A program made the translations under genes and the position numbers. A DNA stretch of 47,255 bases from a virus, in the UHGV virus genome UHGV-1361018; one strand, given 5' to 3'. Below, one piece after another: positions 2,200 to 33,393 of this stretch (its first letter is position 1; the number at the start of each line of letters is the position of its first letter). The notes beneath the pieces are model-generated. The model searched no databases and was not told where the DNA came from. It saw nothing but the letters and a program-made list of their open reading frames with translations.

Positions 2200-2640
2200 T
2201 CAATCCACATCAAAAGGCAAGCCAAAATACGTCAACACTGCAATCTTTATCTGGTCGAGTCCACACGCCACCGCAGAGAATGCACCAGCGCTGGCGCTAT
2301 CGTTGAGAAACGGTATCTGTCCTGGTTGCCATTTGCTAAGCGTTGAATCGTGTCTCTTCAACTCTATCGTCGCTTTATGCCACGCACCACCAGGAGTCAG
2401 GATTATCACATCAGACACCCCTGACCTGACACCTTTCCTTGCGCGCGATGCCAGATGCTGCACTGAGTTGCTTTTAGTCTCCTGAGACGGATGGAACCAC
2501 AGAACATCAGGAAACCGGTAATCCATCCACCACTTGAACGCTATCAAGTCGGAATCCTCAAGCGGGCACTCGCCGCGGTAACCATCATCAAAAATTAATA
2601 CCTTGTCACTCAGCTCATGCTGCTTGAATCGCTTTTTCAC
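2200..2640 (-). CDS. VRR-NUC domain nuclease
   Basis: PD-(D/E)XK-like ...DVIILTPGGAWHKATIELK... Start moved to GTG 2640, which is preceded by AGGAGAGAATA; the track gives a TTG start at 2655. Confidence 0.5.
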   Translation of the reverse strand: MKKRFKQHELSDKVLIFDDGYRGECPLEDSDLIAFKWWMDYRFPDVLWFHPSQETKSNSVQHLASRARKGVRSGVSDVIILTPGGAWHKATIELKRHDSTLSKWQPGQIPFLNDSASAGAFSAVACGLDQIKIAVLTYFGLPFDVD

Positions 2641-4564
2641 TATTCTCTCCTGCAAAATCTTTTCTGTGGATTATGTCGCGACCTTTATCATTAATACGAT
2701 GCGTGATGCGTTTTGGCGCTTTAATCAATCCCGCATACATCATGAACTGCTTGGCGTTCTGGCATTTCAGGATTTTCCCCGCCATTGACTTATCATCAAG
2801 GTGAGGAAAGACCGCCTTTGCCTTGAACATGTTTTTCATGTGAGTTGCGCCGCCGTATGGATAGAAAACCTCATTAGCCCAGCCTTCTTTGCCATCACAA
2901 CGATTAATCCAGTAGCGATATAAAATACCTTCTCCATCCTTCGTTAACTGAACCTTGAAATCCATAACATCAGCCCACTCGTTATCTGTATAAGCACGTT
3001 CATTCAATGCCGCATTCGGGTCGCGCAAAACGTGATCGCAATGTCGGCAATAGCGCGCCGTTGGGTCGTTTTTAGTGCCACATCCATCATCAAAAATCCT
3101 GATTCCGTGCTTGTCAAATCCGCAACGGATGTAACTGAAAAATTCTTCGCAGCGACCATCTGGCGACAATGCATCTTTGCCAATGCAGCGGCGCGCATAT
3201 GGGCTGTTCATTGTTCCGCACTTAGGACACGGGACTTGTTCGCCACTGCGTTTCGAACGTTGCGCTTCAGCCTCTTCCAGAATGGGGTCTTCATAAAGGC
3301 TTCCTAGTTCGAACATTGTTCCAGTGAAATCAAGGCACAAATGGTCTTCCTTGATAAGCCCGGCTTCTATCTGATCCTTTTTTAGTAATCGCATCGGGCG
3401 ACCAAGTAACTGTGTCAGCAATGTCAGAGACATAATTTTTCTCAAAATAACTGACGTATCCCAGTATGGGATATTAACGCCAGTGGTTAGGCACCCTATT
3501 TGCAATGTGTATTTTTTTCTACCAGTGGCAGCATCTTTTAATGCCTTTCTTCTGGCCTTTGGTCCCATATCATCGGTAACAATGGAATAACTTCCTTCTG
3601 GAAGATATTTTGCAGCTTCCTTGCAATGTTTTTTTCCGGCGCAGGTAATAAGCACTCCAAGCCTATCTTTTGTTAACTCCATAACTTTGAGCATGATTTT
3701 TTGCGTCAGCGTTCCCTGCTCAAGTATCTCCTTCTCCATTTGCTTCAGTTGCGCGTCAGTGAAGTCCTGAACACCATCAACTCCACTGCTTTCGAATTCA
3801 TGAAGGTCATATTTCAATTCATCTACGTCAGGCGCGCCGAAAATTGTTGGAACAAGGAAGCCCAAATCAACAAGATATTTTGTACCAATATTAACTATTT
3901 CGTGTTTCCAGTACGGACCCTTAATTGACTCAGTGCCACGGAAAGGGCTTCCAGTGTAACCAATAACAATAACATCGTGACCATGCTTTTCCTTGCATCT
4001 GCGGTTAAGCTCAGTCATTATTACGCCGTATTGTGTTGTTGGCTCACCGCTTACTATATCCTCCCAGTTCATCTGGTGACATTCGTCAACGAGGATATAG
4101 CGAGGAACAAAATCTGAAAGCATTGATTTTTCAGTAACATTTCCATTTTCATCTTTTTTATCAAACAGACCATTTATTATGGTACCCTCAGTGCCAGCAA
4201 TTAAAGGATAAGCAGTTGATTTCCTTCCCAATGAAGCACTAAAAAGTGAATTTTTCACGCTGAGATTCCAAAGCTCCTCAGCATCCTGCTCAATGATCTC
4301 TCCCTGACGTGCAATAACAAGCCCTTCCCATCCCATATCCTGAAATCGGCGCGCAATCATGGCAATCATAATGGTTTTTCCCGCACCTACAGATGCAGTC
4401 ACGAAACTTGGTTTCGGGTCTTTGCCAAACTTGCGGATAATTTCAGCCGTCTTTTCATAAACCAGCCACTGATAAGGTCGTGGCTCAATTTCCCCTGTAT
4501 GAACAACTGACCGCAATTTGTCTATATCCAGCTCCGCAATCATTGCGTCTATTTTATGCGTCAT
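2615..4564 (-). CDS. SF2 (DEAD/DEAH-like) DNA helicase with C-terminal Cys-rich zinc ribbons
   Basis: Walker A ASVGAGKTIM, motif II ILVDECHQ, motif III GYTGSPFRG, motif VI QLLGRPMR. C-terminal CPKCG...C..C / CRHCDH clusters. Confidence 0.75.
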   Translation of the reverse strand: MTHKIDAMIAELDIDKLRSVVHTGEIEPRPYQWLVYEKTAEIIRKFGKDPKPSFVTASVGAGKTIMIAMIARRFQDMGWEGLVIARQGEIIEQDAEELWNLSVKNSLFSASLGRKSTAYPLIAGTEGTIINGLFDKKDENGNVTEKSMLSDFVPRYILVDECHQMNWEDIVSGEPTTQYGVIMTELNRRCKEKHGHDVIVIGYTGSPFRGTESIKGPYWKHEIVNIGTKYLVDLGFLVPTIFGAPDVDELKYDLHEFESSGVDGVQDFTDAQLKQMEKEILEQGTLTQKIMLKVMELTKDRLGVLITCAGKKHCKEAAKYLPEGSYSIVTDDMGPKARRKALKDAATGRKKYTLQIGCLTTGVNIPYWDTSVILRKIMSLTLLTQLLGRPMRLLKKDQIEAGLIKEDHLCLDFTGTMFELGSLYEDPILEEAEAQRSKRSGEQVPCPKCGTMNSPYARRCIGKDALSPDGRCEEFFSYIRCGFDKHGIRIFDDGCGTKNDPTARYCRHCDHVLRDPNAALNERAYTDNEWADVMDFKVQLTKDGEGILYRYWINRCDGKEGWANEVFYPYGGATHMKNMFKAKAVFPHLDDKSMAGKILKCQNAKQFMMYAGLIKAPKRITHRINDKGRDIIHRKDFAGENSEKAIQAA

Positions 4565-4579
4565 AGCAACTAACCTTTG

Positions 4580-4623
4580 TTGATGTTTCTACATCAGTTA
4601 GCTTATACTCAATCTACACCAAC
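4580..4623 (+). promoter_or_regulatory. promoter/operator between the divergent helicase and primase genes
   Basis: Perfect 16-bp palindrome TGATGTTTCTACATCA at 4581-4596 embedded in TTGATG, 18 nt, TATACT (4604-4609). This is followed by AATCTACACCAAC at 4611-4623 around the +1 position. Confidence 0.6.
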
Positions 4624-4639
4624 AATCAAGGGTCAATTT

Positions 4640-5593
4640 ATGAGATACGACTGGAAAGACATTGAGCCAAAAATGCTCGGCAACTGGCAGGCTGCCATCA
4701 TGTCTATCGTCAATGTGGATAGCAGAGTTTTCAATGGCAAGCACCAGCCATGCCCGTCATGCCTTGGCAAAGACAGGTATCGTTTTGACGATAACTTCGA
4801 AACAAAAGGCGATGGAGGGGCAATCTGCAATCAATGCGGTTCAGGCAGCGGCATGAACTGGCTGATGAAACTCTCAGGCATGACCTTCCCTGAAGCACTT
4901 GAGGCGCTGGGAGGATTCCTCAACATGCACCCGCGAGAAAAACTGGAGGCAATCAGGAAGGAGCTGCCGAAGATAAATTACAACGATGATTTCATTACCG
5001 AGCAAGACGTCGCCGCAATTATGGCTAAAACCACGCGTGTCGCGATGAATGAGTGGACGTTGATAAATGGTATTGGTTGCGACGTTAATGTCGTCAGAGG
5101 TAAATCTGGAGAGCTTATTGCGGTTGAGATGGTTCGCGCTGACACAATGAAGCCGTGCAACGTGGCATTCATTGGCATGGATGGTGATGCATTCCGAACA
5201 TTTTATAAAGCAGGATATAACAAAGACTCAGCCATCAACGGCAAACTCACACGCGGCGCGATAAGCACAATCGGAGAAGATAACGGAAAGTTCATTTACC
5301 TGGTATCTGATTATGCCGATGCGTGGAAATGCCATTACTTCACTGGCGCTCATGTCTGGTGTTGCTGGTCGCCGGAAAATATGTGGGAAGTGGTGCGTTC
5401 TGTTAGCGATGAGACGAAGGCGAGGTTACGCTGCATAGTTAATTATAAATTTGACGAGCTGTGCGCTGCGGAAAACGCAGGGCTTCCGGTGATGCTTCCT
5501 GATGATGCTGACACAATCAGGATGGCAAAGAGAATCAGAAGAAAGATTTATGACGCTGGCGAGTTGATAGAGAAAATGTTAGTCAGAAGATAA
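4640..5593 (+). CDS. DNA primase (primase-helicase-type zinc-binding domain + Toprim-like domain)
   Basis: QPCPSCLGKDRYRFDDNFETKGDGGAICNQCGSGSGMNWLM matches the zinc-binding domain of T7 gp4/P4-alpha-type primases. Start set at ATG 4640 (MRYDWK), downstream of the promoter at 4580-4623; the track start at 4577 lies inside that promoter. Confidence 0.6.
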   Translation: MRYDWKDIEPKMLGNWQAAIMSIVNVDSRVFNGKHQPCPSCLGKDRYRFDDNFETKGDGGAICNQCGSGSGMNWLMKLSGMTFPEALEALGGFLNMHPREKLEAIRKELPKINYNDDFITEQDVAAIMAKTTRVAMNEWTLINGIGCDVNVVRGKSGELIAVEMVRADTMKPCNVAFIGMDGDAFRTFYKAGYNKDSAINGKLTRGAISTIGEDNGKFIYLVSDYADAWKCHYFTGAHVWCCWSPENMWEVVRSVSDETKARLRCIVNYKFDELCAAENAGLPVMLPDDADTIRMAKRIRRKIYDAGELIEKMLVRR

Positions 5594-7910: not shown

Positions 7911-8275
7911 AGTAGTTACCGGAGTTACCGGGTTTTTACCTGGCAGTTACCGACGCAAGCTATTGATAAATATAGAGTTACCGGAGTTACCGGATTTTTT
8001 GCATATAAGTCTATAAAAATTTCAAAAATGAGAATTTGCATAAAAATTGAATAAAATGCTTATAAATCATATATATAATAAGAAATTCAACCCTTTTATA
8101 TATGTAAGGAGTTACCCGGTAAATCCGGTAACTCGCCTGAGAGCCTTGGTACATGCGGGTTTCAAGTTACCGGACGTCCGGTAACTCCGGTAACTTTTTG
8201 ATGGTAAAATGGCATAAAAACAACATAAGCAATTGATTTGTAACAGTTACCGGTTTTTATGCTCCTGGTTACCTG
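7911..8275. repeat. iteron array: about 12 copies of GTTACCGG in direct and inverted orientation with an AT-rich stretch; putative origin of replication
   Basis: GTTACCGGAGTTACCGG at 7915-7932 and 7977-7994. Inverted GTTACCCGGTAA...CCGGTAAC at 8111-8133. A 20-bp perfect palindrome GTTACCGGACGTCCGGTAAC at 8166-8185. Further copies at 7946, 8186, 8246 and 8268. AT-rich 8040-8100. Confidence 0.6.
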
Positions 8276-13763: not shown

Positions 13764-13979
13764 CTATTTGGCGTATATATTAATCGCTTCCCTGATCTGT
13801 TCTTCATTATTAAATTTGCCAATATAAGTATATCCATCACACTTAATATGAATTAGCAGATAAACCTTTTTATTTATCAGGTGAGCAAAGAAGAACATAT
13901 CGTTATGATTAATTGTCATACTTCCGCTATCATGTCTCTCAATAATCATCTTTATCATCATCCTCAAGTAACTTATCAA
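13764..13979 (-). CDS. hypothetical protein (71 aa)
   Basis: Minus-strand ORF downstream of the PAPS-reductase-like gene. Confidence 0.35.
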   Translation of the reverse strand: MISYLRMMIKMIIERHDSGSMTINHNDMFFFAHLINKKVYLLIHIKCDGYTYIGKFNNEEQIREAINIYAK

Positions 13980-14799
13980 GAACCTTATCGGATGTATTAA
14001 ATAACGCCTCGCAGCTCTCGCTGCATGAACCAGTATCGTACTGGCGCATTGACGTCATTCGTGATGCCAGCTCATCCCTGCTTACATCGTTAAATAAAGC
14101 TATAACGTCGCCAAGACTTCTGTTTGAACGATACATTATCTTGTCTGATTTTTTATCTTCAGCCTGAATCATCTGCCAAAATTCAGCAGCAAGTTCCGGC
14201 TCATCCTTTGAAGCAAGCGCAACTTTCTGGAGGCTCTTCTTGATACAGAAAACGCAATTACCAAGATGCTCCTGAATGCCAAGGTCGAATTGTTGCATTG
14301 ACCACCAGTCAAGGATATCCTGCTTTTCAAAGTCACTGATGTCTGCAAGGTAATGAAAACCTTCACCTCGGTTCTTTAACCGGTTTGGTTCATCAGTCCT
14401 GACGCCAAGCCATCTCTCGTAATTTCCTTTCCCGTATTTTTCGTTGCAGTATTTTGTGAATGGGACTGTTTTCATGCGGTCAGTGCAGAACGCCCCACCA
14501 ACATATGGATGACCGTACTTGCGCAACATTCTACGCCATGGCTCAAGGTCTGGGCCAATCTCATCGACGGTCAACTGCTCATACGTACTTGCTTTGCGCA
14601 TTTCATGATTTGGCACCACACGAAGACATGTTATAGCGATACTGAAGTGCTTTGCGAAGTTGCGTATAAACTCATACGTTTTTGGGTGCTCTGCTCCAGT
14701 ATCCATAAAGATAACCTCCGCTTCTGGGTGTATCTTTAGCACCTCCAGCGCCATAAACGCTGAAGTTCTTCCGCCTGAAAAGCTAATGACTTGATTCAT
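13939..14799 (-). CDS. PAPS reductase-like (PP-loop ATP pyrophosphatase family) protein
   Basis: N-terminal PP-loop ISFSGGRTSAFMA (SGGxxS). 286 aa. Confidence 0.65.
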   Translation of the reverse strand: MNQVISFSGGRTSAFMALEVLKIHPEAEVIFMDTGAEHPKTYEFIRNFAKHFSIAITCLRVVPNHEMRKASTYEQLTVDEIGPDLEPWRRMLRKYGHPYVGGAFCTDRMKTVPFTKYCNEKYGKGNYERWLGVRTDEPNRLKNRGEGFHYLADISDFEKQDILDWWSMQQFDLGIQEHLGNCVFCIKKSLQKVALASKDEPELAAEFWQMIQAEDKKSDKIMYRSNRSLGDVIALFNDVSRDELASRMTSMRQYDTGSCSESCEALFNTSDKVLDKLLEDDDKDDY

Positions 14800-14987: not shown

Positions 14988-15090
14988 AATCTACATCACC
15001 ATCATATCTACGTCAACATTTATTGTTGTTGATAAATCTGCATCACTACACTTGACCAATCTACACCGAGCGCATAGTATATCTACATCA
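14988..15090. promoter_or_regulatory. divergent promoter region with five TCTACRTCA-family motifs
   Basis: Leftward: TTGACG (rc of 15011-15016), 17 nt, TAGATT (rc of 14988-14993). Rightward: TTGACC 15052-15057, 17 nt, TAGTAT 15075-15080, then ATCTACATCA at about +1. Confidence 0.55.
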
Positions 15091-25802: not shown

Positions 25803-27682
<1,880 letters not shown>

Positions 27683-27684
27683 TA

Positions 27685-28755
27685 ATGGAAAAGATTATTT
27701 TTACCAAAGACTTGGTAGCCAACTCCGCAGTAGTGGCTGACCAGTGGAAACATCTCACCATCGACCGCAAGGTGTTCTGCAATGCAGAAGCTGAACTGGC
27801 GAAAACCTATGGCGTTAACGCCACCGCGCTGGTAACGAAAGATTACTGGCGCGACGTGGACAACGTCACCACCCGCGTTTTCCGTAACGAAGCTGGTCAG
27901 GACATGATGGCTGACCTGATGGGTATCGCGGCAAACATCAACATCGGTAAGACCGTGGCAATCAGCCGCATTGCTTCCGATGCTGGTAAAGTCGTCCGCA
28001 CCCTGTCTGGTCAGGAGCCGGAAGATTTGGATAAAACTCGCTACGATTACACTGGCGATGTGATTCCAATCTTCAAGACTGGCTACAGCCGCGAATGGCG
28101 CGAACTGCTGGGTATGCAGTCTGAAGGTTTTGATCCACTGCTGGACGATCAGGCTAACGTCACCTTCAACCTGCGTTCCGACATGGCGCAGTATCTGCTG
28201 ACTGGCGACCAGACTCTGAACGTGAACGGCGTTTACACTGGTTACGGCATCACCAACCACCCGAACACTGTTCAGGTTAACCTGAACGCCTCCGGCGGAC
28301 TGAATATCGACCTGCAAACCGCAACGCCTGACCAAATCGTGAAATTCTTCAATCAGGATTTCCAGGCTATTCTGGATGCGCAGAACGTATTTGAGCAGGT
28401 TACTCTATGGGTTTCCCCGGCAGTGCGCCGTAGCTTCATGCGTCCGTATTCTGATGCAGCAGGCTTTAAGGGCGGCACGGTTGAGCAGTACATCACGCAG
28501 TTCGGTAATGGTCGCATCGGCAAGATTGGCACCAACTTCCTGTTGACTGGCAACCATTTCGTTGGCTATGTTCGCAACGACATGTACATCCGTCCGCGTG
28601 TTGCTCAGCCTGTTTCCACCTATGCGGCAGCTCGCGCCAACCCGCATGATAACTTTAACTTCCTCGTATGGTCAGCTTTTGGTTTGCAAATTCGGCGCGA
28701 TTATTCAGGAAAATCAAAGGTTTTCAACGGGTATGGAACACAAACAGCGTTGTAA
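27685..28755 (+). CDS. major capsid protein
   Basis: 356-aa ORF coupled to upstream genes, with strong codon bias and followed by a strong terminator. Assigned by position and size. Confidence 0.65.
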   Translation: MEKIIFTKDLVANSAVVADQWKHLTIDRKVFCNAEAELAKTYGVNATALVTKDYWRDVDNVTTRVFRNEAGQDMMADLMGIAANINIGKTVAISRIASDAGKVVRTLSGQEPEDLDKTRYDYTGDVIPIFKTGYSREWRELLGMQSEGFDPLLDDQANVTFNLRSDMAQYLLTGDQTLNVNGVYTGYGITNHPNTVQVNLNASGGLNIDLQTATPDQIVKFFNQDFQAILDAQNVFEQVTLWVSPAVRRSFMRPYSDAAGFKGGTVEQYITQFGNGRIGKIGTNFLLTGNHFVGYVRNDMYIRPRVAQPVSTYAAARANPHDNFNFLVWSAFGLQIRRDYSGKSKVFNGYGTQTAL

Positions 28756-28769
28756 TTGATAAAGGGGGC

Positions 28770-28795
28770 GTTAGCCCCCTTCTTTATACCTTATC
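28770..28795. terminator. bidirectional terminator after MCP
   Basis: AAAGGGGGC-GTTA-GCCCCCTT followed by CTTTAT. Confidence 0.75.
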
Positions 28796-29568
28796 TCGCC
28801 ATAAACCATCCACTGAAGTATATAGCACCACTCCCATTCTGTAATATCATCCCTTAGCCATCGGCTATTCTTTTTGAAGTTGTACTCTGCTGGTTCAGCT
28901 TTAAGATTGTGCAAGCAGTTCACTAGCTCTGGATATACAAGTCCATTCTTGACAAACCAGTTCACAGGTAAAATGTGGTCAATGTGCCAATTACTACGGT
29001 CATCAAAGCTCATCCATGGCTCCATGGTTGATTCTATATGGTTAATAAATTCACTCTTTGAGTAACCAAGCACTTCATCAACACTTGAATCAGAAAGAAT
29101 GGCACCGATCTTGATGTCCATCCTTTCCAGCGTTTTCCTCAGTAATCTATGGTGTGGATTGTCTATCGCCCATTGTTTTACGTTTTGCAAGGCCTTTGCG
29201 TTACCATTTTTTGAGTAATACCATTTACGATAAATCTTCCTTTTCTTCTCCAGAAACACCTCACGCTTTGAGGGGTCAGACTTTACGCGCCTTATGTAGG
29301 CCTTATCTTTTTCTGATTTCTTTTTCCTGTTTTCAGGAATGGAGTAATATTTATCATATGATTTTTTTCTGCTAATGCGCTCCCTATCCTGGCCCTCGCT
29401 TGTTGCGCGCTTAGCTCTGGTGAATTCATACAAGCAATCCTTGCATCTTCCTCCGCCGGCAGTAAAAAAGGTAACGCACCCACACTTTGCGCATGGGAGT
29501 TCGGTGCAGACAAACTGCTTTAATCCCTGCTCTCTGGCTTTAATGGCTAGCTCTTTTCTTGTGGTCAT
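28771..29568 (-). CDS. HNH endonuclease (putative homing endonuclease) with N-terminal zinc finger
   Basis: WHIDHILPVNWF...NCLHNLKAEPAEYNFKKNSRW HNH motif; CAKCGC...CKDC. Start at ATG 29568 with RBS AAGGATTACATC. Confidence 0.55.
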   Translation of the reverse strand: MTTRKELAIKAREQGLKQFVCTELPCAKCGCVTFFTAGGGRCKDCLYEFTRAKRATSEGQDRERISRKKSYDKYYSIPENRKKKSEKDKAYIRRVKSDPSKREVFLEKKRKIYRKWYYSKNGNAKALQNVKQWAIDNPHHRLLRKTLERMDIKIGAILSDSSVDEVLGYSKSEFINHIESTMEPWMSFDDRSNWHIDHILPVNWFVKNGLVYPELVNCLHNLKAEPAEYNFKKNSRWLRDDITEWEWCYILQWMVYGEIRYKEGG

Positions 29569-29659
29569 GATGTAATCCTTGCTGGTTTGGTTTTGCCATC
29601 TTAGCACGGCCATATTTGATGTGTTATAATTAATCAATATCAAAATAGAGGTATTTATA

Positions 29660-29884
29660 ATGGCTAAATACGAAGTCATCGCACGCGGAATCTTTGTTAA
29701 GGAGAAAGGCAAGATTCGTGAATTGCAGCTTGGCGAGGTTATTACGGAACCTGCTGAGCATCTGATGTCAAAGCTGCGAGCAATGCCTGAGCTTCCAAAA
29801 TCATTTGAGGTTGCAACGCCAGCAAAAAAATATGGGGATGAAAAGACAAAACGTCGCCGTCGCTCAAGTAATGAAGATGAATAA
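29660..29884 (+). CDS. hypothetical basic protein (74 aa)
   Basis: RBS AGAGG; Lys/Arg-rich C-terminus; followed by a terminator. Confidence 0.4.
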   Translation: MAKYEVIARGIFVKEKGKIRELQLGEVITEPAEHLMSKLRAMPELPKSFEVATPAKKYGDEKTKRRRRSSNEDE

Positions 29885-29885
29885 A

Positions 29886-29910
29886 AAAGCCCCGTGAAGG
29901 GGCTTTGTTT
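29886..29910. terminator. bidirectional terminator
   Basis: AAAAAGCCCC-GTGA-AGGGGCTTTGTTTTAT. Confidence 0.8.
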
Positions 29911-30107
29911 TATCTATGCTTTATGTATTCATCAACAATATCAACAATATATCTATTGTCTATTAGCCATGCCAGCATATCTTCAGGCTTAACGTCACCG
30001 TCAGGCGTGCTTCCATATAATTTGCAGTCGTTATAGCATTCCATGAAGTTTTTAATATGCTGTGCTTTATTAATTGTTTTGCTTATATCTTCTTTAACGC
30101 CCATCAA
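29910..30107 (-). CDS. hypothetical protein (65 aa), last gene of the leftward accessory operon
   Basis: ATGA-coupled to the DnaN-like gene. Confidence 0.4.
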   Translation of the reverse strand: MMGVKEDISKTINKAQHIKNFMECYNDCKLYGSTPDGDVKPEDMLAWLIDNRYIVDIVDEYIKHR

Positions 30108-30646
30108 TCAATCCTCATCGGCATAACAACAATCTTCGCAGTCTCGCCAGATGGCGCGCTAAGGCAGCAAACTGCGGCATTTGTGTTTCCATTCAGTTCA
30201 AATCTGACACCACAGAATTTAGGGTTAAACAGCTTCGCCACTTTCTCAATATCAACAAGGTAGCCAGCATTGAACCCGATGCAATAAGCAGCTTTCGTTT
30301 CCTTTGGTATCACGCGATCAATATCAGGGAATCGACCATCAATCTCTTCGCAGATACCAGAGCCAACCATCTCGCCAGCTTCATCATGATACGTTGCAAT
30401 TTTCGACTTTGTATCAATGATGGCGTACTCATAACGTTTTGTTGGAGATTTGCCGATCTTGATAATCACATTTTCTGTCAGCTTATTGTCATGACTGTCG
30501 CCAATAAATGCGCGATAACCGTCAGTTGACGCAATGCGACCATCAGTCATGAAGCAGATGCCGTTCAGGTAGTAGCGCACATCATTTCGAGCCTGAAATA
30601 TTAATGCTGATTCAAGTAATAGTTTGCTGATTTTTAGTTTCATCAC
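30104..30646 (-). CDS. truncated DNA polymerase III beta sliding-clamp (DnaN)-like protein, 180 aa
   Basis: Motifs IDGRFPDIDRVIPKE, IGFNAGYLVDIEKV and KIVVMPMRI parallel E. coli DnaN DGRFPDYRRVLPK, IGFNVSYVLDVL and YVVMPMRL. N-terminal LLESALIFQARNDVRYYLNGICFMTDGRIASTDGYRAF resembles a DnaN domain start. About half the length of a bacterial beta clamp. Confidence 0.55.
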   Translation of the reverse strand: MMKLKISKLLLESALIFQARNDVRYYLNGICFMTDGRIASTDGYRAFIGDSHDNKLTENVIIKIGKSPTKRYEYAIIDTKSKIATYHDEAGEMVGSGICEEIDGRFPDIDRVIPKETKAAYCIGFNAGYLVDIEKVAKLFNPKFCGVRFELNGNTNAAVCCLSAPSGETAKIVVMPMRID

Positions 30647-30816
30647 TTCACCTTAATCATGTGCTGTTTTGCAACTTTCAGGCATTCTTCAAAAATGCCA
30701 CCCTTCTTTGCACTCTGGTTGCGCTTGTAATACTGAATCGCCGCATCAATTGCCCTCTGGTCGATGTCTGGCAGCTTGGAGCGAAGTTGTTTTTCGATGA
30801 ATTGTTCAGCGTTCAT
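30645..30816 (-). CDS. hypothetical protein (57 aa)
   Basis: ORF with a TGATGA stop overlapping the DnaN-like start. Below the 60-aa track cutoff. Confidence 0.3.
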
Positions 30817-30825
30817 TGTTCTCGC

Positions 30826-30903
30826 CTATTTGCAGTATGGGCACGTTGATTTAGTTCCGCTACCACCATGTCGTGGGCAACATATTTTCTCCATTGGCGT
30901 CAT
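30826..30903 (-). CDS. Cys4 micropeptide (25 aa, MTPMEKICCPRHGGSGTKSTCPYCK)
   Basis: ATG overlaps the ParB-like stop (TGATG); CC...C..C pattern. Very short, so speculative. Confidence 0.2.
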   Translation of the reverse strand: MTPMEKICCPRHGGSGTKSTCPYCK

Positions 30904-31712
30904 CACATCTTCTCCAGAATTGCCATGACCTCGTGAATGTCAGCAACAGGAATCTGGATAAACTCCTCATCCTCCTTCAACTCATGGCCAGCGGGAAGAA
31001 TCACATGGTCTGCTGGCTTCAATAACTCAATCAGGCGGTCCACTGGCTTAATCTTTTTCGACTTCAGTACCTTCGCTGTGACCTTGTCTTTGCCTTGAGC
31101 TTTGGCCTCTTCGACTGCCTCGTCGATAACCTTTACCGCATCGTCACCATGCTCACGCGTTACTGCTACGGCATTTGCATAGCTGATTTGTCCTGCAGTG
31201 ATGCGCGCTTTTACTTCGGCAGGAACATCACCCAGCGACAGGTGCATTTGCACGTCAGATACTGAACGACCTACCTTCTTGGCGATTTCTTCATTCGTCC
31301 AGCCAAAACCTTTCAGTCTCGTGTAAGCCTTTGCGCGTTCAAACGGGTCGAGCTGCTTACCCTGACTGGATGACACCATGAAGGCGATTTTATCCGCCTC
31401 GTCTCCAGTGAAATCCTTACATTCAATGCGAACGATTGGTGCGCCTCGTTCAATGGCACGCAATGCGCCGAGATAGCGATGCTGACCATCAAGGATGCGG
31501 ATTCCCTTCTCGTCCGGAATAACTGTTAATGCTGGTAATGGCTGACCTGATTCCCAGCACTGCGCGAAATATTCGACATGCTGCTCATCTGCTTCACGGA
31601 TGTTATATCCCGGCTCCAGGTAGATTTGCTCCACTGGCACGAGATAGGTTTTGTTAACAGCGATGCCGTTTCGCGTTTCTTTGTCTGAATATATTTTGCT
31701 TAGTGTTTTCAT
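30903..31712 (-). CDS. ParB N-terminal (ParB/Srx-fold, DGQHR motif) domain protein with HTH
   Basis: ILDGQHRYLGALRA; HTH WTNEEIAKKVGRSVSDVQMHLSL; 269 aa. Confidence 0.65.
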   Translation of the reverse strand: MKTLSKIYSDKETRNGIAVNKTYLVPVEQIYLEPGYNIREADEQHVEYFAQCWESGQPLPALTVIPDEKGIRILDGQHRYLGALRAIERGAPIVRIECKDFTGDEADKIAFMVSSSQGKQLDPFERAKAYTRLKGFGWTNEEIAKKVGRSVSDVQMHLSLGDVPAEVKARITAGQISYANAVAVTREHGDDAVKVIDEAVEEAKAQGKDKVTAKVLKSKKIKPVDRLIELLKPADHVILPAGHELKEDEEFIQIPVADIHEVMAILEKM

Positions 31713-31909
31713 TTAACTCTCGCCTCCATCATTCTTTCTGCGATAAGGTAAGCATGTTCAGCCTTCTCGCCATAACCCATATTTGGTGATGTAATTAACA
31801 GAGATTGCATTGCTTTTGCGGCAAAATAATCACGCAGCGTTGCATCAGAAGCCATTTCTTGGCGCTTAACGTCATAATCAATAAATTCATCTTTCATATC
31901 ATTCACCAC
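31709..31909 (-). CDS. hypothetical protein (66 aa)
   Basis: ATGA-coupled. Confidence 0.4.
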   Translation of the reverse strand: MVNDMKDEFIDYDVKRQEMASDATLRDYFAAKAMQSLLITSPNMGYGEKAEHAYLIAERMMEARVK

Positions 31910-32090
31910 CTTCTTCTAACAATTGCTCGTAATATGCGACGTACTCATTGGCAAGATGGTACAGGCGCTCAGCAGACTTGCGTTCTAAATTACTTAAGTC
32001 ATCAATAGACTCAATGTTGCCAATTGCATCAACACAATCATTGAAGTCTTGCTCCGTGTTACGAAATCTACAGTAGGACATGTTTCCCAT
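31899..32090 (-). CDS. hypothetical protein (63 aa)
   Basis: Overlap-coupled. Confidence 0.4.
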   Translation of the reverse strand: MGNMSYCRFRNTEQDFNDCVDAIGNIESIDDLSNLERKSAERLYHLANEYVAYYEQLLEEGGE

Positions 32091-32092
32091 GA

Positions 32093-32734
32093 TTATTCCT
32101 CATCACCAGAATTAGCAATATCGTAAAACTGACCGTATGTTATCCGCTTAAAGTTATCAGGTATCGTTACCTGTCCGTGACCTTCATCTTTTGTATTTGG
32201 CACTGCAAAAATCAGACAATCATCCTTTTGCGGATGTTTTCCGCCATAAGTAGACAGCATTGCAAAACCAAATCCTCGAGCAGATTGCTCACCAATGCCT
32301 GTGCGTGCGATGCCATAATGGTTAACAATGTAGTCCTTCCATTCTGGCAATAACTTCAATTTCTCGTTTGCCTCGCGCATCACTGCGTCCAGCTTTTTGT
32401 TGTACTCTCGCCCATCCTTTGTGTTTCCCTTACCGCGAGCAATAACTACTCGTTGACCATCCCAAAACTCTTCACGTTTTATTGTCACTTGGCACGGGAA
32501 TTCAAAATGATTGCTCCATACAAAACTCTCAAGTAAGCCACCGCCGACCACGCCCCAGCTACGTGTCGTAGTAAAAGCTATGGCGCCAACCTTTTTCATG
32601 GCATCGCCGAGAATTTCATTGCGGCGCTTTTGAATGTCATCATATGCGTTAATAACTTTCTTAACATCATCACCTTCAACCATGTAGTAATCATAATGTT
32701 TTGCATTGCTGCTCATTTTTATCACCTCTAACAT
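32093..32734 (-). CDS. hypothetical protein (213 aa), first gene of the leftward accessory operon
   Basis: RBS AGAGGTGAT. No motif recognised. Confidence 0.5.
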   Translation of the reverse strand: MLEVIKMSSNAKHYDYYMVEGDDVKKVINAYDDIQKRRNEILGDAMKKVGAIAFTTTRSWGVVGGGLLESFVWSNHFEFPCQVTIKREEFWDGQRVVIARGKGNTKDGREYNKKLDAVMREANEKLKLLPEWKDYIVNHYGIARTGIGEQSARGFGFAMLSTYGGKHPQKDDCLIFAVPNTKDEGHGQVTIPDNFKRITYGQFYDIANSGDEE

Positions 32735-32738
32735 TTAT

Positions 32739-32805
32739 TGTTGTTTCTACGTCACTAACTATAAACACCTCATCAATCTACGTCAACAGGAATATGCTAA
32801 AATCA
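32739..32805. promoter_or_regulatory. divergent promoter region
   Basis: Leftward: TTGACG, 17 nt, TATAGT (rc of 32755-32787) with the palindrome-type operator TGTTGTTTCTACGTCA 32739-32754 at about +1. Rightward: extended -10 TGCTAAAAT 32795-32803. Confidence 0.6.
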
Positions 32806-32833
32806 TGCTAATCAAACAGCAGGGGATTTAAAC

Positions 32834-32953
32834 ATGGGTTCAACAAACGGTCCGTCTCGTTCACGCGCTACTGGCAACACCAAAACTGGCGGCAAAACTG
32901 GCGCAGTGAAGCCAAACGGCTCTACTCGCTCACCATCGCGCGGTAAAAAATAA
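32834..32953 (+). CDS. small basic Gly/Ser/Thr-rich protein (39 aa)
   Basis: RBS AGGGGA; MGSTNGPSRSRATGNTKTGGKTGAVKPNGSTRSPSRGKK. Confidence 0.35.
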   Translation: MGSTNGPSRSRATGNTKTGGKTGAVKPNGSTRSPSRGKK

Positions 32954-33393
32954 TGTTCGGCGCAGATATTGCCATCATGATCATGTATGTGTTGGGTTTT
33001 GCCTGCACAGGCATGGTCGCGTTTCTGGTATTCATTCCGGCAATGGTGATATCTGTGTATCTTGGATGGGTGCTTGTTGATTCATTTCCCGCCGAATATC
33101 TGTATTACCTTGCGCAGTCTATGGTCTGGTTGTTTCCGGCTATTGCGCTGCGCAAAAGTGCAAAGATGGCGCTCTGCGTGCTGACGATGAGCCTTTACGA
33201 ATGGCTGGTTGCGATAGAGTCATTCGTATGGGAATTTATCACGCCTGTAGAAACGCCGCTTCATGCGCAGTACGCATTTATTATTATCGGCATCCATCTG
33301 TTCATCCTTTCCATCACTTTTAAATGGGGCGGCGAAATTGGACATTATTCTTGGCGTGGTCGCCATTGTTTTTTCGCTGATTCAAATCTATAA
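32953..33393 (+). CDS. hypothetical membrane protein (146 aa, about 4 TM)
   Basis: Multiple hydrophobic helices. Confidence 0.45.
   Translation: MFGADIAIMIMYVLGFACTGMVAFLVFIPAMVISVYLGWVLVDSFPAEYLYYLAQSMVWLFPAIALRKSAKMALCVLTMSLYEWLVAIESFVWEFITPVETPLHAQYAFIIIGIHLFILSITFKWGGEIGHYSWRGRHCFFADSNL

Follow-up and report, generated by a model that had tools for sequence, protein, structure and literature searches.

The window analysed here, the whole 47,255-nt stretch of the virus genome UHGV-1361018, derives from a Guernseyvirinae-like (Jersey/Kaguna-type) virulent siphophage, a coliphage. Within its head gene cluster, flanked by the major capsid gene at 27685-28755 and by the head-tail genes (from 33655 onward), lie eight tightly packed minus-strand ORFs (29910-32734), all of them where an earlier note on this DNA had placed them. 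They are listed here with their flanking signals; counts of loci refer to a comparison set of 52 related loci, in which presence was scored by gene cluster at this position.

32758..32786, minus strand: sigma70-type promoter (-35 TTGACG at 32786-32781, 17-nt spacer, -10 TATAGT at 32763-32758)
32746..32785, minus strand: two direct copies of the 9-mer TGACGTAGA, at 32785-32777 over the -35 and at 32754-32746 around +1
32093..32716, minus strand: EaC/DUF5420-family protein, 207 aa, ATG at 32716 after a GAGGTGA ribosome-binding site
31899..32090, minus strand: 63-aa acidic ORF (phrog_8760, E 8.5e-25), variable cargo
31709..31909, minus strand: 66-aa ORF (phrog_2201, E 3.9e-10), variable cargo
30903..31712, minus strand: ParB-like DNA-binding protein, 269 aa, conserved core gene (52/52 loci)
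30826..30903/6, minus strand: Cys4 micro-ORF, 25-26 aa (MTPMEKICCPRHGGSGTKSTCPYCK), its start overlapping the ParB-like stop (TGATG)
30643..30816, minus strand: 57-aa ORF (phrog_4439, E 2e-22), conserved core (50/52 loci)
30104..30643, minus strand: mini beta-clamp (DnaN-like), 179 aa from ATG or 180 aa from GTG 30646 (51/52 loci)
29910..30104/7, minus strand: 64-65-aa ORF with weak, sub-threshold likeness to Ral, at the 3' end of the operon
29886..29906, both strands: bidirectional intrinsic terminator, 8-bp stem (5 GC pairs) flanked by T-runs

The promoter has the highest promoter-like score between 27 and 35 kb (10 of 12 matches), and 50 of 51 related loci have TTGAC[AG]-N16-18-TA[TC]A[AG]T in the same place, with differing spacer letters. 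The terminator is common to the operon and a convergent 74-aa gene (29660-29884, plus strand); on the minus strand its RNA fold has an energy of -15.6 kcal/mol (z = -5.1), and U6 comes directly after it. Five of the seven gene junctions overlap (three by TGATG, one by ATGA and one over 11 nt), the remaining two have spacings of 2 and 9 nt, and none leaves space for an internal promoter or terminator. Read from the sequence, the block is supported as one leftward transcription unit of non-structural genes, probably expressed early or in the middle of infection. The earlier note's leftward eight-gene operon is thereby recovered with all of its ORFs, its sigma70-like promoter and its bidirectional terminator, and its products are indeed not structural components; the accompanying statement that all genes are overlap-coupled holds for five junctions and fails for two, and was slightly overstated.

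The promoter does carry a repeated motif at +1, the downstream copy covering about -3 to +6, as had been proposed. The motif is not the palindromic operator described before, being instead a direct 9-mer repeat (consensus TGAYGTAGA) that recurs genome-wide at promoter-like sites. Seven exact copies of TGACGTAGA occur in the window against 0.31 expected, with TGATGTAGA variants besides, and these sites lie mostly in intergenic, promoter-like regions across the window rather than at the operon specifically. The related phage Bas79 has 12 copies of TGAYGTAGA against 0.77 expected, at equivalent promoter-like sites including those of its replication genes, and most relatives keep both copies at the operon, spaced 30-31 bp. 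The pair is therefore a probable operator or promoter element that the operon has in common with other intergenic, promoter-like regions.

The region is matched by 205 GenBank phage records; the module has already been sequenced in more than 200 phages. Comparison of the 52 loci separates a fixed core, consisting of the ParB-like gene, the 57-aa ORF and the DnaN-like gene of about 180 aa, from three hypervariable slots, one upstream of the ParB-like gene, one separating it from the 57-aa gene and one downstream of the mini-clamp gene. In the window the slots hold the EaC/DUF5420 gene, the 63-, 66- and 25-aa ORFs and the weakly Ral-like ORF, and in relatives they hold C5-MTases, N6/N4-MTases, an Endonuclease VII domain, HNH/homing endonucleases and other small ORFs. 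Even ECO95 1-6-1, the closest GenBank relative, differs at two slots. The earlier description of the block as an accessory island, judged by presence and absence in relatives, thus fits the five variable ORFs and does not fit the core trio.

The slot genes are cargo, putatively of the moron or anti-restriction type. The EaC/DUF5420 ORF (phrog_2260) could also start at an upstream ATG (32734), giving 213 aa, but the 32716 start is better. Proteins bearing the name Eac or DUF5420 match it at 52-73% identity, many of them on long bacterial contigs where the homologues are probably prophage-borne; it occurs in only 10 of the 52 loci, and no relative of this ORF with a solved structure was found. 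The 63-aa cluster occurs in 16 of 52 loci. The 66-aa ORF is a singleton among them, 29 relatives having an ORF of about 103 aa in that slot; ECO95 1-6-1 has the 66-aa ORF at 98% identity. The 25-aa Cys4 ORF, whose slot in relatives is taken by DNA methylases or other ORFs, is kept at 85-92% in at least five other loci, with several synonymous differences in Cys and Gly codons suggesting translation. The Ral-like ORF reaches E 1.4e-3 against Pfam Ral (18.5 bits, below the cut-off of 25) and E 8e-4 against phrog_1055. It is absent from all 51 related loci compared and has homologues in only seven phage records, the best of them (65% identity) in unrelated E. coli phages of 68-72 kb. The EaC identity, the weak Ral likeness and the dispensable, patchy genes in an early-type operon recall lambdoid early cargo such as the P22 ea genes (e.g., EaC) and lambda Ral, although here the phage is a virulent siphophage, the genes lie inside a head-gene cluster and the Ral likeness is sub-threshold.

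The ParB-like protein begins with an N-terminal ParB/Srx-type domain, has a ParB/KorB helix-turn-helix at its center and ends in a C-terminal tail. It is 97-99% identical in most closer relatives and about 80% identical in a subgroup that is more distant, in phages with a methylase and in those lacking one alike. It matches HTH_ParB (PF17762; 2.8e-11) and KorB (5.7e-6), and aligns to Spo0J (1vz0) with E 8.5e-13. Its likeness to the CTP-dependent clamps ParB, KorB and Noc (RK2 KorB, PMC11790492) thus extends to the ParB-type HTH, to the KorB-domain match and to an N-terminal domain that aligns to Spo0J, ParB and Noc, and, as with KorB operators, a motif is repeated at many promoter-like sites. 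It departs from these proteins in several respects. DG[Q/H]HR stands where GERRxR would be (ILDGQHRY at residues 73-80, with G76, H78 and R79 invariant), the ENLQR CTP-binding box is replaced by SSQG, no ParA or KorA partner is evident, the candidate site is asymmetric and directly repeated where a palindrome would be usual, and the protein scores under the family cut-offs of the noc, parB and DGQHR models. A homologue in Morganella prophages lies directly upstream of a lambda-P-type replication gene, with a 316-aa gene between.

The DnaN-like protein had been called truncated, yet about 180 aa is the normal full length of a widespread, mostly phage-borne family, and the gene is not damaged. 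The family comprises 152 clusters (50% identity; E < 1e-10), nearly all of 170-215 aa and found in many unrelated phages, and its members are routinely annotated "DNA polymerase III beta subunit". The window protein corresponds to domain II of the beta clamp and to the C-terminal half of its domain III, with the clamp-binding-motif pocket kept; since domain I is missing, as is half of domain III together with the I272/L273 dimer-interface segment, it would be unable to form a canonical ring. In the structure model only two long helices (8-17 and 127-140) appear, and domain II's second helix has no counterpart. By the published residue list for the pocket (PMC11139829), 15 of 18 residues in subsites I and II are identical to E. 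coli beta, including M362-P363-M364-R365 at the C-terminus; H175 is replaced by Tyr and L177 by Ala. Across 102 family members the mean match to E. coli beta is 0.72 in the pocket columns and 0.32 in the other aligned columns. Although the protein has these 15 cleft residues in common with the bacterial beta clamp (DnaN; E. coli 2pol, 1mmi), it is half the size and belongs to a separate family. The pattern shows that the cleft is under constraint and does not distinguish between ligands or purposes; recruitment and sequestration would both leave it.

Several observations bear on a link to replication. In distant phages the mini-clamp gene lies inside replication modules, with the orders cI-cro-cII-miniclamp-O-DnaB and cII-miniclamp-...-helicase-primase, and also as a primase followed by a divergent ORF of about 200 aa, ParB-like gene, mini-clamp, SF2 helicase and VRR-NUC. 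The helicase, VRR-NUC and primase of this last arrangement are homologous to window genes 2615-4564, 2200-2655 and 4577-5593. Both the window and Bas79 encode an SSB, an exonuclease, an SF2 helicase, a primase and a primase/helicase-like protein, and no DNA polymerase was found among the proteins of either. Based on these comparisons we favor, with about even confidence, the explanation that this operon serves DNA metabolism early or midway in infection and combines a replication-linked core, in which the mini-clamp would couple the host polymerase, with anti-restriction cargo. The trio would represent a displaced part of a replication module. Because no ring is expected and yet the hydrophobic cleft is preserved, we propose that the mini-clamp docks a host protein through the QL[SD]LF-type motif that the cleft would bind, most likely Pol III alpha or the clamp-loader delta subunit. 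Docking would link the host polymerase, which is needed because the phage encodes none, to the phage's own helicase-primase replisome. Among the recognisable proteins the ParB-like protein is the sole sequence-specific DNA-binding one, and it is the leading candidate to bind the TGAYGTAGA repeats at promoter-like sites in the manner of KorB. Against this assignment, ParB-family dimers normally bind palindromes, whereas the repeat is asymmetric and direct. Counted against the replication role itself are the position of the trio in the Guernseyvirinae-like group, 20-25 kb away from helicase, primase and origin-like region, the replacement of H175 and L177, and the finding that phage proteins contain no canonical clamp-binding motif able to tie the mini-clamp to the phage replisome, the sole match being QMHLSL, inside the ParB HTH fold.

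The same absence of motifs can be turned toward a different function, since it implies that the natural ligands are probably host proteins. It is possible that the mini-clamp is a decoy, titrating such proteins (the clamp-loader delta subunit, Hda, MutS/MutL, Pol II/IV/V) off the real beta clamp and shutting down host replication or repair, with the ParB-like protein acting through TGAYGTAGA as a KorB-like global repressor of early promoters. Pocket conservation fits this equally, the lack of ring-forming parts agrees with it, and the KorB domain match and the many promoter-like motif sites would suit a repressor. N4 gp8, which targets the clamp-loader delta subunit, counts as a precedent. So does Twort Gp168 in its complex with the beta clamp (PDB 7evp); a decoy would, as they do, disturb or make use of the network of host clamp interactions, although these two are unrelated small binders and the mini-clamp is a clamp homologue copying the cleft itself. 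Sequestering Pol III or the clamp loader would nevertheless hurt a phage without its own polymerase, and the location of the mini-clamp directly upstream of initiator, helicase and primase genes in distant phages better suits the constructive role that we favor. It is extremely unlikely that the DnaN-like protein acts as a real sliding clamp (processivity ring), say as a higher oligomer in which 1.5-domain protomers encircle DNA to serve the host polymerase or a different one. Its homology and routine annotation point that way, and its three beta-alpha-beta-beta-beta-like units per chain would give twelve ring units in four chains, but domain I and the I272/L273 segment are absent, the missing equivalent of the second helix of domain II would leave the channel lining incomplete, and the most conserved residues are those of the cleft.

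A more doubtful possibility places the ParB-like protein at the center of an anti-restriction platform, as a DNA-loading activator of DNA-modifying enzymes, either the neighboring methylases of relatives or a PAPS-reductase-like gene elsewhere, so that the operon would shield phage DNA from restriction with EaC, the acidic 63-aa protein and the Ral-like ORF as further factors. The post-ParB slot holds a C5 or N6/N4 methylase or an Endonuclease VII-domain protein in 11 of 52 loci, Bas79, ZCEC08 and HC6 have such enzymes there too, and the PAPS-reductase-like gene lies behind the same promoter motif, a gene of this type being found near a ParB-like homologue in a Brenneria prophage. The DG[Q/H]HR motif weakly recalls DndB, and to the weak Ral match can be added a KFS-SE2 slot gene annotated "anti-restriction protein". 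An activator precedent comes from a phage ParB homologue that activates its cognate thymine dioxygenase on dsDNA (PMC13229309), and here too a phage ParB homologue has beside it a slot often occupied by DNA-modifying enzymes (methylases). However, the 5mYOX-associated ParBs pair with dioxygenases and have no obvious DNA-binding domain (PMC13229309), whereas the protein here has a clear HTH, is always linked to the mini-clamp and is kept with or without a modifying neighbor; the window slot itself has no methylase. The Ral and DGQHR matches fall under curated cut-offs, and the mini-clamp and replication-module context are left unexplained.

The idea in the earlier note of a self-contained island, whose eight overlap-coupled products form one stoichiometric complex of a new, unnamed system, draws on the tight gene coupling and on the lack of a named counterpart. 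The latter point stands, as PADLOC on the region returned no defence or anti-defence system and the literature on the combination consists of genome-annotation statements only. The complex as such is very unlikely. Overlaps between start and stop codons are normal for phage operons, and the finding that close relatives exchange or lack five of the eight genes, with three present in all, speaks against a single obligate complex of eight proteins. In addition, the module belongs to the set genome layout throughout this phage group, and its core genes are found separately in other phages. On sequence grounds a tighter link is plausible for one pair only, the 57-aa ORF and the DnaN-like gene, where stop and start overlap (TGATG) at a junction kept in most of the 50 loci with both.

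The block transcribed against the head genes is best described, judging by its sequence, as a DNA-metabolism operon of early type, whose core of a ParB-like gene, a 57-aa ORF, and a gene for a short DnaN-like protein (the mini-clamp) is accompanied by exchangeable cargo of anti-restriction type. The operon itself is not new, since hundreds of genomes already carry the module with loose annotations. At 60-95% identity, region 29500-33000 finds counterparts in 205 phage records of GenBank; most are 45-48-kb siphophages of Salmonella, Klebsiella, and Escherichia (for example, ECO95 1-6-1, ZCEC08, Bas79, Akira, KFS-SE2, and vB_Se_STGO-35-1); these phages are Jersey/Kaguna-like, that is, Guernseyvirinae and neighboring genera. 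Literature searches on Guernseyvirinae, Jerseyvirinae, Jerseyvirus, ParB, and DnaN-like returned annotation-level mentions of the module and no functional or transcriptomic paper on it. The operon is set among its neighbors as follows.

27215-28755, plus strand, decoration and major capsid genes
28771-29712, minus strand, Endonuclease VII/HNH-like 313-aa gene (phrog_1035), between the capsid gene and the operon terminator
29886-29906, bidirectional terminator with T-runs on both sides
29910-32734, minus strand, the eight ORFs of the operon
30104-30643, minus strand, mini-clamp
30643-30816, minus strand, 57-aa ORF
30826-30903, minus strand, 25-aa Cys4 ORF
30903-31712, minus strand, ParB-like protein
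32786-32758, leftward sigma70-like promoter (TTGACG, 17-nt spacer, TATAGT)
32834 onward, all plus strand, 39-aa ORF, then lipoprotein-like, membrane-protein, and head-tail genes

The anatomy proposed in the earlier note, eight leftward ORFs between a sigma70-like promoter and a bidirectional terminator, is borne out: minus-strand ORFs fill the block, the promoter outscores every other sigma70-like site in 27-35 kb, and the terminator, as minus-strand RNA, has a predicted folding energy of -15.6 kcal/mol (z = -5.1) with U6 after it. The promoter pattern is kept at the same place in 50 of 51 related loci while the spacer sequence varies, which argues that the promoter elements are under selection. 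For the first gene, the ATG at 32716 (207 aa) is the likelier start, as it follows GAGGTGA and gives a length that agrees with relatives. The claim that all genes are coupled by overlaps holds at five of the seven junctions (TGATG at three, ATGA at one, and an 11-nt overlap at one) and fails at the other two, which have gaps of 2 and 9 nt; the stoichiometric complex read from this coupling was not confirmed. Promoter, terminator, junctions, and the lack of internal signals all fit a single polycistronic operon. The 313-aa gene overlaps the 5' end of the convergent 74-aa gene and is found in only a minority of relatives, and is thus probably a homing endonuclease insertion; being sporadic, of this type, and beyond the terminator, it was rejected as a member of the operon.

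We collected 51 related loci from IMG/VR with the DnaN-like protein (52 including the window), called the ORFs from the promoter to the convergent 74-aa gene in each, and clustered them. The earlier note had taken the whole block for an accessory island and proposed to check its presence or absence in relatives with conserved flanks. With flanking synteny kept, this check divides the block into exchangeable cargo and a universal core trio: the ParB-like gene is found in 52/52 loci, the DnaN-like gene in 51/52, and the 57-aa ORF in 50/52. The variable ORFs include EaC (10 loci), a 63-aa cluster (16 loci), and an ORF of ~103 aa (29 loci), while the 66-aa and Ral-like ORFs of the window are singletons; the closest GenBank relative, ECO95 1-6-1, has the 66-aa ORF and lacks the Ral-like and 25-aa ORFs. 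The slot between the ParB-like gene and the 57-aa ORF may hold a C5-methylase, an N6/N4-methylase, an Endonuclease VII-domain protein, an HNH gene, small ORFs, or the 25-aa ORF, and in the slot that follows the DnaN-like gene the 52 loci carry a wide variety of small ORFs. Three slots are hot spots that exchange methylases and small candidate anti-restriction genes, and are therefore useful places to seek new anti-defense genes. At 4880-5100 of one compared locus, L008, a duplicated junction borders a C5-methylase cassette and joins the 3' end of the ParB gene (...MAILEKM*) to the 5' end of the 57-aa gene (MNAEQ...), which suggests that cassettes enter by recombination at short conserved gene-boundary sequences.

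Within the cargo, the 207-aa protein belongs with EaC/DUF5420 (PF17457). Over its full length it shares 52-73% identity with named Eac/DUF5420 proteins, one of which carries PF17457, and many of its homologs lie on long bacterial contigs; its own direct score against the family is 13.5 bits, below the threshold of 26. A profile search of PDB sequences found nothing for this protein, and the literature yielded no functional study of EaC/DUF5420. The 64-aa ORF scores 18.5 bits against Ral (PF11058), below the threshold of 25 (E 1.4e-3), and matches phrog_1055 at E 8e-4; its homologs come from 7 phage records only, the best of them in unrelated 68-72-kb phages, and we treat the Ral assignment as a lead only. 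At least five further loci conserve the 25-aa Cys4 ORF, and its Cys and Gly codons show synonymous substitutions among them; it is probably translated as a micropeptide, possibly with a zinc knuckle. We also considered it as a methylase remnant and rejected this reading, because the ORF is distinct, conserved in its own right, and can stand ahead of a methylase. PADLOC, at E <= 0.01, gave no match for the eight proteins searched, a set that did not include the 25-aa ORF.

The DnaN-like member of the core is the mini-clamp. The beta sliding clamp (DnaN) carries three similar domains in a chain of about 366 aa, and its ring is a head-to-tail dimer joined through an interface of domains I and III (the I272/L273 region). 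Instead of three domains, the model of the mini-clamp comprises domain II and one half-domain: the protein (179-180 aa) aligns to residues 136-289 of E. coli beta, and its C-terminal 58 residues to 316-366 (E 5e-11), with the best PDB clamp match at 2.6e-12. Domain I and residues about 255-315 are without counterpart, as is, in the model, the second helix of domain II. Because domain I, the I272/L273 segment, and this helix are all missing, a canonical ring appears to be excluded. The hydrophobic cleft, by comparison, is predicted to persist. Among the 18 residues listed for subsites I and II of the clamp-binding-motif cleft (PMC11139829), 15 are identical in the aligned mini-clamp of the window. 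Across the family, cleft columns match E. coli beta at a mean of 0.72, versus 0.32 for other aligned columns, and cleft residues account for 10 of the 12 most conserved positions after the initiator Met.

An earlier description of this protein as a truncated DnaN does not hold. An exhaustive search at E < 1e-10 yielded 152 clusters (50% identity), almost all with proteins of 170-215 aa, so the short form is a stable family rather than a truncation; only one full-length DnaN was found among the best 150. AF2 with a 102-sequence alignment modeled the protein at pLDDT 95.8 and pTM 0.90, superseding an unusable run with 24 close homologs (pLDDT 42.6). According to BFVD, numerous unrelated phages share the fold, with examples from phages of Pantoea, Serratia, Burkholderia, and Rhodococcus; within the limits of our searches, this widespread family is unstudied. 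The protein has also been called "RusA-like Holliday junction resolvase" (phrog_3007), a label passed from PHROG/Pharokka into RefSeq that appears to be wrong, given that sequence and structure comparisons return only the beta clamp; Pfam, PDB-sequence, and fold searches gave no support for RusA. Both this label and "DNA polymerase III beta subunit" are misleading names: as alignment and model indicate, the "DNA polymerase III beta" of Jersey/Kaguna-like phages is a cleft-only clamp paralog that has been under-appreciated.

Many virulent phages, Jersey/Kaguna-like and T1-like among them, encode their own helicase and primase and no DNA polymerase, and to our knowledge the capture of host Pol III by such phages is largely unexplored. 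The window and Bas79, a complete relative, both encode SSB, a PDDEXK exonuclease, an SF2 helicase, a primase, and a primase/helicase-like protein, and no DNA polymerase gene is encoded in either. In distant phages, where the mini-clamp is 46-65% identical, its gene stands in three arrangements.

Arrangement 1, in temperate phages: cI-cro-cII-miniclamp-O-DnaB
Arrangement 2: cII-miniclamp-...-helicase-primase
Arrangement 3: primase, then a divergent ~200-aa ORF-ParB-like-miniclamp-SF2 helicase-VRR-NUC

The helicase (E 1e-31), VRR-NUC, and primase of the third are homologous to window 2615-4564, 2200-2655, and 4577-5593, respectively. In Morganella prophages, the early-right operon carries a ParB-like homolog shortly before a lambda-P-type replication gene; ParB-like homologs are also found elsewhere in other phages. 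These distant contexts, together with the lack of a DNA polymerase in the window and Bas79, favor reading the trio as a piece of the replication module that has been displaced. We hypothesize that the mini-clamp copies the partner-binding cleft of the host clamp and would thereby capture the alpha or delta subunit of Pol III, and that in polymerase-less phages, with the ParB-like and 57-aa proteins, it could couple host Pol III to the phage helicase-primase replisome. Recruitment of Pol III by the conserved cleft is a step that we infer; it is plausible but unproven. Alternatively, the same cleft might serve a decoy that disarms host clamp partners. A search of the phage proteome for clamp-binding motifs gave a single match, within the ParB HTH and probably structural. 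That pocket-only clamps are a widespread phage device for capturing host replisome proteins, linked by the ParB-like and 57-aa proteins to the phage replisome, is a tentative proposal that we would ourselves call doubtful. If true, the mini-clamp would be a new class of replisome-hijacking adaptor, and a cleft-only clamp homolog that occurs across unrelated phages and in replication modules offers a concrete, testable candidate for Pol III capture.

The "palindromic operator" described at the promoter of the operon is instead a direct repeat: TGACGTAGA occurs twice, over -35 and around +1, with no palindrome. The exact 9-mer has 7 copies in the window versus 0.31 expected, and with the TGATGTAGA variant the motif also stands in promoter-like intergenic stretches ahead of other non-structural genes. 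Its sites across the genome are as follows.

2202, motif site
4596, helicase operon
8304 and 8321, rightward early genes
14998-15090 (14998/15015/15090), PAPS-reductase-like operon
19678/19715 and 22921/22938, two divergent regions
32754/32785, promoter of the operon itself
37394, motif site

The fuller motif is TGAYGTAGA(TTG/AAC), often in two copies ~17 or 31 bp apart that overlap -35 and -10 or +1, and Bas79 has 12 copies of TGAYGTAGA versus 0.77 expected, in equivalent places. Since the motif is common to the operon and to replication and early genes, it suggests common control, and the operon is probably early or middle in timing. Beside the ParB-like genes of two distant phages (loci L058 and L062), nothing convincing was found as a shared repeated motif.

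The ParB-like protein is the leading candidate for binding TGAYGTAGA, a role as yet unproven, because it is the only recognizable sequence-specific DNA-binding protein annotated in this phage type. It has a central ParB-type HTH (PF17762, 43.9 bits; cut-off 22.6) and a KorB domain (PF08535, 26.6 bits; cut-off 22.3), and aligns to Spo0J, ParB, and Noc structures. A proper CTP box is not retained, as the Spo0J alignment shows GQHRYL for GERRYR and SSSQG (SSQG) for ENLQR, and family scores fall short (TIGR00180 parB_part, 38.4 bits versus 58.45; TIGR04285 noc, 38.5 versus 315). DG[Q/H]HR, which stands in place of GERRxR, is invariant in 24 homologs, down to 36% identity; membership in the DGQHR/DndB family (TIGR03187) was rejected, since the protein, although it has the motif at residues 75-79, reaches 16.2 bits where the cut-off is 58.85. 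As for parS-like sites, the enriched TGAYGTAGA is an asymmetric direct repeat, and the palindromic iterons (7914-8253) show no co-variation with ParB. An asymmetric repeat is an unusual binding site for ParB-family proteins. No ParA is annotated in Bas79, and "ParB-like partition protein" is a misleading name in a virulent phage without ParA. Phage ParB homologs can activate DNA-modifying enzymes (PMC13229309), with which the methylase slot beside the ParB-like gene fits, but the gene is also kept where there is no methylase.

The iterons themselves form an origin-like cluster, which has the leftward replication genes on one side and the rightward early genes on the other; in it, twelve copies of the 9-mer AGTTACCGG flank a very AT-rich core.

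7914 and 7976, direct doublets of the 9-mer
7995-8105, AT-rich core
8116 and 8178, inverted doublets of the 9-mer
8165-8186, 22-bp palindrome

They were rejected as the site of the ParB-like protein, because that of Bas79 is 98% identical and yet its genome is without them. At the same place, Bas79 has different repeats, CGTGGGG[C/A]A, beside a non-homologous replication gene, and it lacks homologs of the adjacent 543-aa and 92-aa genes of the window. From this comparison, the iterons belong with the adjacent initiator-type gene rather than with the ParB-like gene, and origin and initiator appear to have been swapped as one cassette.

Two minor observations concern other genes. No tRNA gene was found in window 1-47255, and several relatives (ZCEC08, vB_Se_STGO-35-1) have a tRNA just downstream of the head-tail genes. 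The PAPS-reductase-like gene (13939-14799, minus strand; PF01507, phrog_33262) has its three TGAYGTAGA copies clustered in front, and the PHROG profiles are ~160 residues longer at the N-terminus; in a Brenneria prophage (locus L090), a PAPS_reduct gene lies two genes from a ParB-like homolog.
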